NCBI GenBank assembly: GCA_934155265.1
Contig: CAKPGU010000009.1
Location: 10,702 to 74,701, forward strand
Origin: an uncultured Clostridia bacterium
GTDB taxonomy: Bacteria > Bacillota > Clostridia > TANB77 > CAG-508
Reading direction: 5' to 3'
DNA length: 64,000 nucleotides
Shown here: positions 16,840-19,524 of the stretch, one piece after another
Position numbering within the stretch: position 1 is the first letter of the stretch
Layout of the letters: the number at the start of each line of letters is the position of its first letter
Made by a program: the position numbers and the translations under genes
The notes under the pieces: generated by a model
Databases searched by the model: none
What the model saw: the letters and a program-made list of their open reading frames with translations, nothing else
Told to the model about the DNA's origin: nothing

Positions 16840-18363
16840 ATGGAAACATTTTCGAAATTTTTATACGAATTTTTAAAACAGTTCTTTTCTGGGGCAATAA
16901 CTATTTTTAGAGGTATTGGAACAGGATTGCAACAAACTTTTGATATAAAATCATATCAAAATATATTAAATACATATAAAGGAGACTTTTCAGTTCCAGA
17001 GTGGGCATTAGTTGTAATATCAATTTTGTGTATAGCAATATTTATTGGTCTTATAATTGCACTAATATATTTGCTATTTAGAAAATATGTGAAATTTAGA
17101 AAAAAAGCAATTGACCAAGATGAATTATTAGAAGAAGTAGCATCATTAAATAAACAAGTAACAACATTAATGAAGGAAAAAGAGAATATTATGGCTATGA
17201 AGGTGTCTCAACTTGGTTTAAAGCCTGATGAATCAGCAGAAATAGAGCCAGATGAGCAAGATGAGGAAGGTGTTGATAATCCTGATATAAGATTTTCTAA
17301 ATTACATGAAATTGATTTAAGATTTGAAGATTATCAACAAATAGATTATGGAAATTCATTTACATTACCAGAATTGTGTGCAAATTTTAGGAATTTTGCT
17401 GCATCAAAATTAAGATTATATTATAAACCAGAAATGGTAAGAATCTTTATTTCTGGACTAGCATCTACAAAATTGATAATTTTACAAGGTATCTCTGGAA
17501 CAGGTAAAACATCTCTTGCTTATGCTTGGGGTAAATTCATGAGACATGATTCTTGTATTGCATCTGTTCAGCCATCTTGGAGAGATAGAACAGATATGTT
17601 TGGGTATTTTAATGAATTTACAAAGAAATTCAATGAAACTGAAATGTTAAAAGAAATGTATATTGCAGATTATGTTGATGAGGTTTATACAGTAATTTTG
17701 GATGAGATGAACTTGTCTCGTGTAGAGTATTACTTTGCAGAGATGCTTTCTATTTTGGAGATGCCAAATAGAGATGAATGGATTATAGAGTTAGTTCCAA
17801 ATAGTTGGAAAACAGATCCTAAATATATTACAGGTGGAAAGATAAAAGTGCCATCAAATATGTGGTATATAGGAACAATCAATAATGATGACTCAACTTT
17901 TGCTGTAACAGATAAAGTATATGATAGAGCTATGCCAATAGATATAAATGATAAGAGTGTTCCGTTTGAGCCTATTGAAACAGAGGCAGAAGGAATTAAT
18001 TTTTCTTATTTAGATAATTTATTTAAAACAGCGATACAGGAAAATCCTATATCACAAGAGACTTTAGATAAAATTGAGCAAATGGATAATTATGTAATAC
18101 AACATTTCCGTATTGCATTTGGTAATCGTATTGTAGCACATATGAAAAAGTTTGTTCCTGTGTATGTTGCTTGTGGTGGAGATGAAGTTAGTGGAGTTGA
18201 TTATTTTATAGCTAAAAAAATATTAAGAAAGTTTGAACAATTAAATATGTCATATATTAGAGATGAAATAGACCCTTATATACAATTTTTAAATACAACA
18301 TTTGGTAAAAATAAGATGAAAGAATGTATAGAGTATTTATTAAGATTGAAAAAAATGTCATAA
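16840..18363 (+). CDS. membrane-anchored coiled-coil McrB-family AAA+ GTPase (intact copy)
   Basis: TM helix ALVVISILCIAIFIGLIIALIYLLF. Coiled coil DELLEEVASLNKQVTTLMKEKENIM. Walker A IILQGISGTGKTS. McrB-type Walker B ILDEMNLSRVEYYFAEMLSILE. N-x-x-D motif IGTINNDDS. DKVYDRAMPIDI. The pattern and spacing match E. coli McrB (LQGPPGxGKT ... IIDEINRANLSKVFGE ... IGxMNTADRS ... RRF). Confidence 0.75.
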   Translation: METFSKFLYEFLKQFFSGAITIFRGIGTGLQQTFDIKSYQNILNTYKGDFSVPEWALVVISILCIAIFIGLIIALIYLLFRKYVKFRKKAIDQDELLEEVASLNKQVTTLMKEKENIMAMKVSQLGLKPDESAEIEPDEQDEEGVDNPDIRFSKLHEIDLRFEDYQQIDYGNSFTLPELCANFRNFAASKLRLYYKPEMVRIFISGLASTKLIILQGISGTGKTSLAYAWGKFMRHDSCIASVQPSWRDRTDMFGYFNEFTKKFNETEMLKEMYIADYVDEVYTVILDEMNLSRVEYYFAEMLSILEMPNRDEWIIELVPNSWKTDPKYITGGKIKVPSNMWYIGTINNDDSTFAVTDKVYDRAMPIDINDKSVPFEPIETEAEGINFSYLDNLFKTAIQENPISQETLDKIEQMDNYVIQHFRIAFGNRIVAHMKKFVPVYVACGGDEVSGVDYFIAKKILRKFEQLNMSYIRDEIDPYIQFLNTTFGKNKMKECIEYLLRLKKMS

Positions 18364-18387
18364 TATAATGGAAGGGGAGAAGGTCTG

Positions 18388-19524
18388 TTGGAAAACTTAG
18401 AGGTAATAGAATTATATGATGATTCGAATAAAGAAAATGATAAAAAATTTATAGAGTCTTCTGAATCTAGTTTAAAAGTACAAACTGAAAAAAAATATAT
18501 AACTAGAGATGTTGAGTGGATTAATTTAATGGAAGAAGTTATTCCTCATTTAGACCATGTTTTTAGGACACCAAATCGTTTTATTCAAAATGAAGAAGAG
18601 ATTGTTAAAATAGAGCAAACAAGAAAGGTATCTGTTGAAACAATAAAACATTTATCTAAAAATACAAATTTTATACAAACAGTTGAAGAAAAAACAGGAA
18701 ATGTAATTCCGTCTAAATTACTGAATGTAAGAAAAGAAGAAACTTACAATACTTATGAAAATCGTCTAGCATATACTTTGATTCAAAATGTAAAATTTTT
18801 TGTAAATAAAAGAAAGCAATCTTTAGTGGAATCATTAGGCATGGAGAAAAACGATGAAAATAAAGATAATAAGCAATTAGAATATAATGCAAAATCTAAA
18901 TTAAAAAATGAAGCTATCGACATAAATGTTTCAATAAGTTCAAAATTGGATTCACAGGGAAAAGACTCGCAAGAAGAAAATAAAAAGATGTTAGAAAGAA
19001 TTGAGGCAATCGAAAGAAAGATTACTGATGTAGAGTCTAATGATGTATATAAGATACTTGATAAATTACACGTTACATTAGTTAAAGACCCGATTAGAAA
19101 AACAAATATGATATTAAAAAATGTACATTTTCAATATATTATGAGATTGTGGGAGTTCATAAAAGATAATTTTGACGAAAATACAAATAGTTCAGAAGAA
19201 AATAAAGATTATATGGATGATGGTCAATTAAAAAAGATGATGGATGAGGCATTTTTACTTCAGTATTTGGTAATGAAAACATTAGATGAAGATGAAACAG
19301 AAAAGCAAGATACTAAAAAGGAAGTTAAAGCAATAATATTGGAACAAATGTTAGATAAGATGATTGACCTAGATGAAGATATAACAGAAGAGCAATTGCA
19401 TCAATTAGTTGCTGAAAAATATGAAGTAATAAGATATAAAAAAATGGCTGTATTGCAAGATATACAAAAGATATTTAAAAAGCATATAGATTTATATGAA
19501 GAAATGGTTGAAGGGAAAAATTAA
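18388..19524 (+). CDS. lysine-rich partner protein (McrC position); paralog of 2422..3543
   Basis: See 2422..3543. 29-nt overlap with the downstream sipW paralog. Confidence 0.45.
   Translation: MENLEVIELYDDSNKENDKKFIESSESSLKVQTEKKYITRDVEWINLMEEVIPHLDHVFRTPNRFIQNEEEIVKIEQTRKVSVETIKHLSKNTNFIQTVEEKTGNVIPSKLLNVRKEETYNTYENRLAYTLIQNVKFFVNKRKQSLVESLGMEKNDENKDNKQLEYNAKSKLKNEAIDINVSISSKLDSQGKDSQEENKKMLERIEAIERKITDVESNDVYKILDKLHVTLVKDPIRKTNMILKNVHFQYIMRLWEFIKDNFDENTNSSEENKDYMDDGQLKKMMDEAFLLQYLVMKTLDEDETEKQDTKKEVKAIILEQMLDKMIDLDEDITEEQLHQLVAEKYEVIRYKKMAVLQDIQKIFKKHIDLYEEMVEGKN

Follow-up and report, generated by a model that had tools for sequence, protein, structure and literature searches.

The GTPase and its McrC-like partner

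The 64,000-nt stretch analysed here (hereafter the window), part of contig CAKPGU010000009.1 of an uncultured Clostridia bacterium, opens with a fibre-type array of about 35 kb. Within this array a McrB-like guanosine triphosphatase (GTPase) is followed directly by a McrC homologue without a nuclease and then by a signal peptidase of the SipW type (Table 1). We analysed what this GTPase and its partner are, how they are linked to their neighbours and what the pair might do.

The McrB hallmarks that the original prediction had claimed for the GTPase were all found in its AAA+ core, namely GISGTGKT from residue 217, DEMN from 288, NNDD from 348 and DRAMP from 362, and its best matches among PDB sequences are McrB chains. 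These make up the top four, three of them at E-values from 9e-5 to 3e-4; the best is E. coli McrB (E = 9e-5), a Thermococcus McrB chain stands at E = 0.048, and the two chains that come next are unrelated (E > 0.3). The alignment with McrB takes in both Walker motifs, A and B, as well as the signature region. The sole relevant NCBIfam match was likewise to a McrB model (PRK11331; E = 1.5e-4, 20.7 bits against a curated cut-off of 637), and a Pfam scan at E ≤ 0.01 returned no match, AAA_5 and MoxR included. A MoxR- or dynein-type AAA+ identity was dropped, as no family of those kinds matched. PADLOC gave one match only, PDC-M26A (E = 4e-35), which lies over the GTPase core; since the partner and the neighbouring genes match no PADLOC model, a PDC-M26 system was dropped as well.

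We aligned the GTPase domains of the two copies in the window with those of 133 of the 150 best representatives, 135 sequences altogether. Residues G217, G220, G222, K223, D288, E296, N348, D350, S352 and R363 are invariant in all 135, and E289 and D362 are each kept in 134. Position 351 is D in 100 sequences, E in 31 and another residue in 4. To judge from this alignment, what the family conserves is N-x-D with D or E as the next residue, a variant of the CoCoNuT/CoCoPALM branch. The NxxD signature of the original prediction is present as a string, but with D350 invariant and position 351 variable it is better read as NxD(D/E); pairwise alignment with E. coli McrB alone cannot tell the two apart. 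We conclude from database searches that the match of the GTPase to its family is not by chance, because all 8000 scored candidates of a word-index search reached E ≤ 0.001, 765 clusters lay below E = 1e-30 among the 8399 matches from a full scan of 50%-identity representatives, and the catalytic residues are invariant across the alignment.

A transmembrane (TM) helix and a coiled coil had been predicted in the place of the DNA-binding domain, and the N-terminal region bears this out. Residues 58 to 76 form a single strong hydrophobic segment (peak of the 19-residue Kyte-Doolittle mean, 3.3), a heptad-like stretch at about residues 85 to 121 precedes an acidic linker, and no DNA-binding family matched residues 1 to 150 even at E ≤ 10. 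The TM helix is followed by FRKYVKFRKK, and because six lysines or arginines fall within the 20 residues from 80 to 99, we infer that the GTPase domain faces the cytoplasm. The module of TM helix and heptads is also conserved in relatives of the GTPase. Conserved as well, both between the two copies in the window and among relatives, are the N-terminal 35 residues (METFSKFLYEFLKQFFSG...), a segment that scores as a second TM helix in several relatives; the anchor may be a helical hairpin, or an in-plane helix combined with one TM helix. A cleavable signal peptide was dropped as a candidate, since the helix begins at about residue 56, behind this conserved segment. At E ≤ 10 we found no match of this GTPase to FtsB or DivIC; among 14 relatives, the N-terminal module gave sub-threshold matches to DivIC in three and to FtsL in one (best E = 0.015).

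The closest 150 representatives fall into three N-terminal classes. Those with one or two TM helices and about 450–580 amino acids (aa) are nearest to this GTPase, others have four or five TM helices (about 550–840 aa), and a further class, next in closeness to the TM-bearing proteins, has no TM helix and a long N-terminus (700–870 aa), which would fit CoCoNuT-type CnuB. The polytopic class with four or five TM helices (P0158-P0242 of the representatives search) includes many close relatives of the GTPase, and we found no mention of it in the main text of PMC11090510.

The partner carries the N-terminal domain of McrC: Pfam DUF2357 (PF09823) matched residues 26–149 (48.3 bits, where the cut-off is 23.3; E = 1e-12), and a close homologue bears the NCBI name 'DUF2357 domain-containing protein'. 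Alignment with partners from distant loci delimits a conserved core at about residues 40–260, with W44, E49, Y123-E124-N125, R204, P235, T239-N240, K244-N245 and L254-W255 conserved. No PD-(D/E)xK nuclease family matched the partner, and the invariant columns of the alignment hold no D...(D/E)xK pattern. PDB sequences returned nothing, either for the single sequence or for a profile of 13 diverse partners. Heptad-like segments lie at 192–219 and 317–375, and long helices and a helical C-terminus are predicted by a low-confidence model; a hairpin is predicted at about residues 160–185. Partners in rumen lineages reach 587–895 aa, being lengthened by coiled-coil or low-complexity extensions; DUF2357 was found in these too, and no nuclease family matched them either. 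From its sequence, then, the partner is a McrC homologue that has kept the McrB-engaging N-terminal domain and lost the nuclease. It had been called non-nuclease-like, which holds for the missing nuclease and fails in so far as it set the protein apart from McrC. On the points that had been named beforehand as speaking against the prediction, we found a partner that is no canonical McrC nuclease, a helix that is no signal peptide and an AAA+ domain that does not group with MoxR or dynein-like proteins.

Table 1. Features of the array (positions in the window, nt; residue numbers refer to the 507-aa GTPase)
Feature	Position	Strand	Remarks
Fibre-type array	1-35507	+	two duplicated units; ORF, open reading frame
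Second, paralogous cassette	43-4865	+	EAL-like protein, GTPase, partner, SipW, family 2 substrate
EAL-like protein, second cassette	43-621		C-terminal part, gene cut by window start; one of two copies of a 332-348-aa protein
GTPase, second cassette	645-1220 plus 1126-2322		split by frameshift; 68% identical to GTPase at 16840-18363
DUF2357 partner, second cassette	2422-3543		33% identical to partner at 18388-19524
SipW, second cassette	3544-4170		
Family 2 paralogues	4194-4865, 13056-13688		first one is the substrate of the second cassette
520-540-aa proteins	5092-6714, 23927-25489		31% identical
Family 1 paralogues	8213-8923, 9967-11190, 22429-23496		TYAWW/TYAWF
SipW paralogues without catalytic residues	12490-13059, 34881-35507		
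Conserved 332-aa cytoplasmic protein (EAL-like)	15828-16826	+	
McrB-like GTPase, NxD branch	16840-18363	+	507 aa; ATG start, GAAGGA ribosome-binding site 7 nt upstream
 amphipathic/hydrophobic segment			residues 1-35, conserved
 TM helix	17005-17076		residues ~56-79
 coiled coil; acidic linker			residues ~85-121; ~126-150
 AAA+ domain			residues ~150-507
 Walker A	17488-17511		residues 217-224
 Walker B	17701-17706		D288-E289
 signature	17881-17889		N348-x-D350
 DR motif			D362-R363
McrC homologue without nuclease	18388-19524	+	378 aa; TTG start behind GGAGAAGG ribosome-binding site
SipW-type signal peptidase I	19496-20122	+	archaeal/endoplasmic-reticulum type; alternative ATG 19526
Putative substrate, family 1	20140-20751	+	secreted; N-terminal hydrophobic segment, then AYAWF
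Putative substrate, family 2	20759-21457	-	secreted; hydrophobic segment, then IYAKY
2906-aa ORF	25506-34226		

The surrounding array and its conservation

The genes around the pair are tightly spaced. The upstream 332-aa protein ends 13 nt before the start of the GTPase, 24 nt separate the GTPase from its partner, and the partner overlaps or abuts the SipW gene. This peptidase scores 88.3 bits with TIGR02228 (cut-off 51.85; E = 4.6e-25) and has both the catalytic serine (GSM) and the catalytic histidine (THQ). Nearby lie two families of putative substrates. In the four proteins of family 1 the hydrophobic segment ends in (S/N)(T/A)YAW(F/W), and in the three of family 2 it ends in YAKY or YALF; TIGR04088, the SipW-cognate signal, gave weak sub-threshold matches on two family 1 paralogues only. 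With SipW peptidases and putative secreted substrates on either side, the pair does lie in the kind of secretion or fibre locus that had been claimed for it.

Most ORFs of the array lack an informative annotation, and all-against-all comparison showed that they are organised as families of paralogues. The array holds eight SipW-family genes, four plus three putative substrates, two GTPases, two DUF2357 partners, two EAL-like proteins, two helical proteins of 520–540 aa, two TM proteins of 242–259 aa and one protein of 2906 aa. No ORF across 1–36 kb matched a nuclease or HEPN family, and the array contains no integrase, transposase or other defence gene. In the second cassette the GTPase is interrupted by a frameshift in a Gly-rich linker that is about 130 nt longer than in orthologues. 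The gene is split in the same way (191 + 384 aa) in the gene calls of two further assemblies of this organism, and intact single-ORF orthologues (517–518 aa, 94–96% identical) occur in the metagenome loci L100, L102 and L126; the split GTPase may be a pseudogene, a split gene or a case of recoding.

The protein encoded directly upstream of the GTPase has a helical N-terminal part and an alpha/beta C-terminal half whose fold looks EAL-like in structural comparison. Among the top structural matches of this half are the degenerate cyclic-di-GMP receptors LapD and FimX and the EAL-like YdiV; profile and sequence scans gave no sequence-level support for the assignment. By eye, DNSF stands in the place of DDFG and the domain appears to be cut short; if it is an EAL domain at all, it is probably a non-catalytic one. 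Copies of it lie directly upstream of each GTPase, that is in both cassettes of the window and at 1154-2200 of the related locus L049. FimX and LapD, which are degenerate EAL receptors, regulate pili and adhesins, and it is possible that the EAL-like protein provides a cyclic-dinucleotide or protein-interaction input to the system.

We examined related loci with a scan of one genome per species and a scan of metagenomes, which added 80 loci; 124 loci could be scored for context. The species-level scan found relatives of the GTPase at 46–94% identity in 48 loci, almost all from metagenome-assembled genomes of uncultured gut or rumen Clostridia or Bacillota and one from a complete chromosome of 1.55 Mb; the metagenome scan yielded only close relatives (52–78% identity). 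The partner lies directly downstream of the GTPase in 89 of the 92 loci with enough flank, and a SipW-like gene lies within 4 kb of the pair in 78 of the 79 that have both flanks. As the upstream neighbour of the GTPase, 70 of 98 loci have the 332-aa protein and 24 have a SipW-like gene. Even in the most distant rumen lineages, where the GTPase is 46–53% identical, there is still a signal peptidase beside the pair. No gene of the locus is better conserved than the GTPase, whose median identity of 79% compares with roughly 50–60% in its immediate neighbours. Gene order around the pair is conserved in the 48 species-level genomes, and the base composition of the locus matches that of the surrounding chromosome; the locus is inherited vertically within the chromosome.

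Several further members of the array deserve description. Two SipW paralogues have lost both the catalytic serine (GSM replaced by KKM or DLM) and the catalytic histidine (THR replaced by LGE or INK), and are, to go by these residues, probably non-catalytic pseudo-peptidases, a loss that would fit a structural or assembly role. The 2906-aa ORF has an N-terminal hydrophobic segment (…IVMIRAFIKS), is partly conserved in related loci (53–74% identity) and had no Pfam or NCBIfam match; within the fibre system its product may act as a surface or tip protein of giant size. The paralogous 520–540-aa proteins lack a TM helix and matched nothing in Pfam, NCBIfam or PADLOC, nor did the second of them match any PDB sequence. 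We regard them as conserved cytoplasmic components of the system, because there is one in each duplicated unit.

With a G+C content of about 27%, the window is part of a low-GC bacterial chromosome, and nearly all of its genes lie on the + strand. A promoter scan of this AT-rich DNA gave 110 sites where 111 are expected from shuffled sequence, and terminator-like sites were mildly enriched (7 against 2.0±1.5 expected), the clearest being hairpins at 11213-11312. The stretch 11213-11360 contains two strong hairpins, a first of 12 base pairs with a T-run behind it and a second of 20 base pairs, and after them the best promoter-like site of the scanned region (11 of 12 matches, extended TG). These elements fall between the two duplicated units, where transcription probably has a boundary. 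Downstream of the array come housekeeping genes, among them polA (36396-39122) and dnaE (53715-57230). Just past polA lie genes for an SLT lytic transglycosylase (39314-39904) and an A24 type IV prepilin peptidase (40503-41255), and from these genes the organism may also have type IV pilus-type machinery. Between 50001 and 52000 the GC content rises to 37.5% and the skew is reversed; a 578-aa SPFH/Band 7 protein is encoded there on the - strand (50508-52244). Two genes for P-type cation ATPases lie near each other on the - strand (57303-59027 and 61025-63661). The 574-aa ATPase lacks the C-terminal Cation_ATPase_C domain that its 878-aa neighbour has, and may be truncated or a pseudogene.

Possible functions of the pair

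The combination found here has a name. In three sentences of their main text, and without experiments, Bell et al. (2024; eLife 13:RP94800, PMC11090510) defined CoCoPALM as a large clade with an NxD McrB-like GTPase that has a TM helix and a coiled coil, a coiled-coil McrC homologue and signal-peptidase neighbours; they proposed a link to pilus assembly and postponed the details to a later publication. Among the other papers searched, none mentions the name or the combination. By its sequence features, the pair in the window very probably is a CoCoPALM-type system, because every defining feature that we tested was found, FtsB-likeness aside. The locus is a further example of a named yet experimentally uncharacterised architecture, and the idea of a new defence-system architecture has to be given up in so far as the architecture itself is not new.

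In restriction systems, McrB forms a GTP-dependent hexamer; hydrolysis is stimulated by the N-terminal domain of McrC, which enters the ring, and DNA is then cut by the nuclease of McrC. By analogy with solved McrBC complexes, the GTPase in the window would assemble into a ring at the membrane, on its cytoplasmic side, anchored by its TM helix and coiled coil, and the DUF2357 domain of the partner would insert into this ring and switch on GTP hydrolysis. As neither the nuclease nor the DNA reader has been retained, the output would be something other than DNA cleavage. GTP hydrolysis might drive or gate a step in which the fibre subunits are processed, extracted from the membrane, polymerised or moved through the wall, a role comparable to that of PilB-type ATPases in type IV pili, with the EAL-like upstream protein as a candidate regulatory input.

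The reading that we favour, with a probability of roughly 0.55, is that the pair is a CoCoPALM-type, GTP-driven and membrane-anchored motor or gate for the biogenesis of SipW-processed surface fibres, and does not serve restriction. A role in fibres is suggested because the pair is predicted to be co-transcribed, and is strictly co-inherited, with SipW peptidases and proteins that carry SipW-type signal peptides. It is favoured over defence because the array has no nuclease or HEPN domain, the cassette has been duplicated with peptidase and substrates, the GTPase stands out as the best conserved gene, and inheritance is vertical. The original prediction had offered a choice between a new kind of defence and co-option of a McrBC-like motor for envelope or export functions, and the context fits co-option far better. 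A precedent for an energy requirement of SipW-type fibres comes from C. perfringens, in which the TasA-like, SipW-dependent oligomers of BsaA need ATPase genes of the type IV pilus for their export (PMC11580942).

Several points weigh against a motor or gate for fibres. To our knowledge, SipW/TasA fibres of Bacillus need no dedicated nucleoside triphosphatase (NTPase), and the nearest characterised relatives of the GTPase that we know of are all defence systems; its sole PADLOC match, PDC-M26A, is a candidate defence protein. A TasA-like or pilin-like identity of the putative substrates found no match in Pfam, NCBIfam or PDB sequences beyond the sub-threshold TIGR04088 signal. The structure model of the partner is poor (predicted local distance difference test score, pLDDT, of 49) and a fold search with it was uninformative, and the topology of the first 55 residues of the GTPase may be of more than one kind. 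The pilus link in the main text of PMC11090510 is itself drawn from gene context.

If the pair is not a fibre motor or gate, it might be an anti-phage or abortive-infection system in which the membrane-bound McrB-like ring and the McrC-like partner sense infection and a non-nuclease effector responds. The cue could be phage DNA entering at the membrane or an attack on a fibre used as receptor, and the output a perturbation of the membrane or a stop in the production of the receptor fibre. The family does descend from McrBC, the main text of PMC11090510 predicts a defensive role for the sister group, CoCoNuT, and the E-value of 4e-35 for PDC-M26A points the same way. We nevertheless consider defence unlikely: there is no recognisable effector domain, and the locus has no nearby nuclease or HEPN gene of the kind that, according to the same text, always joins a nuclease-less McrC of CoCoNuT. 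The partner, moreover, matches no PADLOC model, the array is free of integrases, transposases and other defence genes, and the locus is vertically conserved, in fixed order over 48 species and with the base composition of the chromosome.

The GTPase could also be a regulatory switch and not a motor, with a FtsB-like module of TM helix and coiled coil that sets the ring at a defined envelope site such as the septum or pole; its nucleotide state, which the partner and perhaps also the EAL-like protein would fix, would then license where and when SipW acts. The faint DivIC and FtsL echoes in the N-terminal module of relatives speak for such a switch, as do the FtsB assignment of this module in the main text of Bell et al. 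(PMC11090510) and the presence, upstream in both cassettes, of a protein with FimX and LapD among its top structural matches; we still rate the switch as improbable. That the pair is a functionless, decaying remnant of a restriction system is hardly credible. Both classical functional modules, for DNA binding and nuclease activity, are indeed gone, and one of the two GTPase copies is frameshifted, but the frameshifted copy is intact in related organisms, the catalytic residues are invariant over 135 relatives, no other gene of the locus is as well conserved as the GTPase, and the architecture recurs in thousands of sequences.

A motor or gate for surface fibres would mean that a restriction-enzyme motor was recruited for building cell-surface structures. 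It would join type IV/Tad pili and the chaperone/sortase routes as a third kind of fibre machinery driven by an NTPase, and it could explain how SipW-dependent fibres are supplied with energy for crossing a thick cell wall. We put forward a more elaborate version only tentatively: a hexameric, membrane-tethered GTP motor that a nuclease-less McrC finger switches on and a degenerate EAL-type receptor, perhaps of cyclic-di-GMP, tunes, and that would extract SipW-processed subunits or push them into surface fibres. Motor and EAL module would then amount to a counterpart of PilB/FimX made from restriction-enzyme parts, and so to a previously unrecognised fibre machine of Gram-positive bacteria. 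As such loci are abundant among the uncultured low-GC Clostridia that live in the guts of humans and animals, they may shape adhesion or biofilm formation there. For annotation, McrB-like, McrC-like or PDC-M26A matches alone should not be taken to mean defence.

Comparison with known systems

CoCoPALM and the pair in the window share an NxD GTPase with an N-terminal TM helix and coiled coil, a DUF2357 partner without nuclease and signal-peptidase neighbours. None of the tested defining features differs, although the FtsB homology claimed in the main text of PMC11090510 is only faintly echoed here. That main text does not mention the EAL-like gene, the presence of the complete cassette in two copies, the catalytically dead SipW paralogues or the 2906-aa protein, and the position of the EAL-like gene directly upstream in both cassettes is possibly a detail new to CoCoPALM.

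Canonical McrBC (E. coli and Thermococcus gammatolerans; PDB 6ut6, 6hz4, 6ut3) has the AAA+ core, the DUF2357 domain and the gene order, B before C, in common with the pair. In contrast to it, the GTPase described here has a TM helix and coiled coil instead of the N-terminal DNA-binding domain and the NxD instead of the NxxD signature, the partner lacks the PD-(D/E)xK nuclease, and the neighbours are secretion genes and not methyltransferases or defence genes. CoCoNuT belongs to the same NxD branch, and its McrC homologues often have no active nuclease. It differs in having no TM anchor and in always coming with HEPN or other nucleases (for its nuclease-less McrC homologues, the main text of PMC11090510 reports a nuclease or HEPN gene in every case), neither of which holds for the pair in the window.

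The SipW/TasA operons (tapA-sipW-tasA of B. subtilis and sipW-bsaABC of C. perfringens) resemble the array in that a SipW peptidase lies beside small secreted proteins with signal peptides that finish on a motif of the T/S-Y-A-aromatic-F type. These operons encode no NTPase of their own, whereas the array has eight peptidase paralogues, two GTPase–partner pairs and several additional conserved cytoplasmic proteins. Type IV pilus and Tad systems, which combine a prepilin peptidase with a PilB/TadA ATPase and are known for FimX-PilZ-PilB regulation, differ from it in sequence and fold class, with a PilB-type ATPase against a McrB-type GTPase and a peptidase of family A24 against one of the S26/SipW type. 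The likeness to them would be one of functional logic, by analogy, in that a leader peptidase and membrane subunits are combined with a cytoplasmic, membrane-tied hexameric NTPase and possibly an EAL-type regulator.

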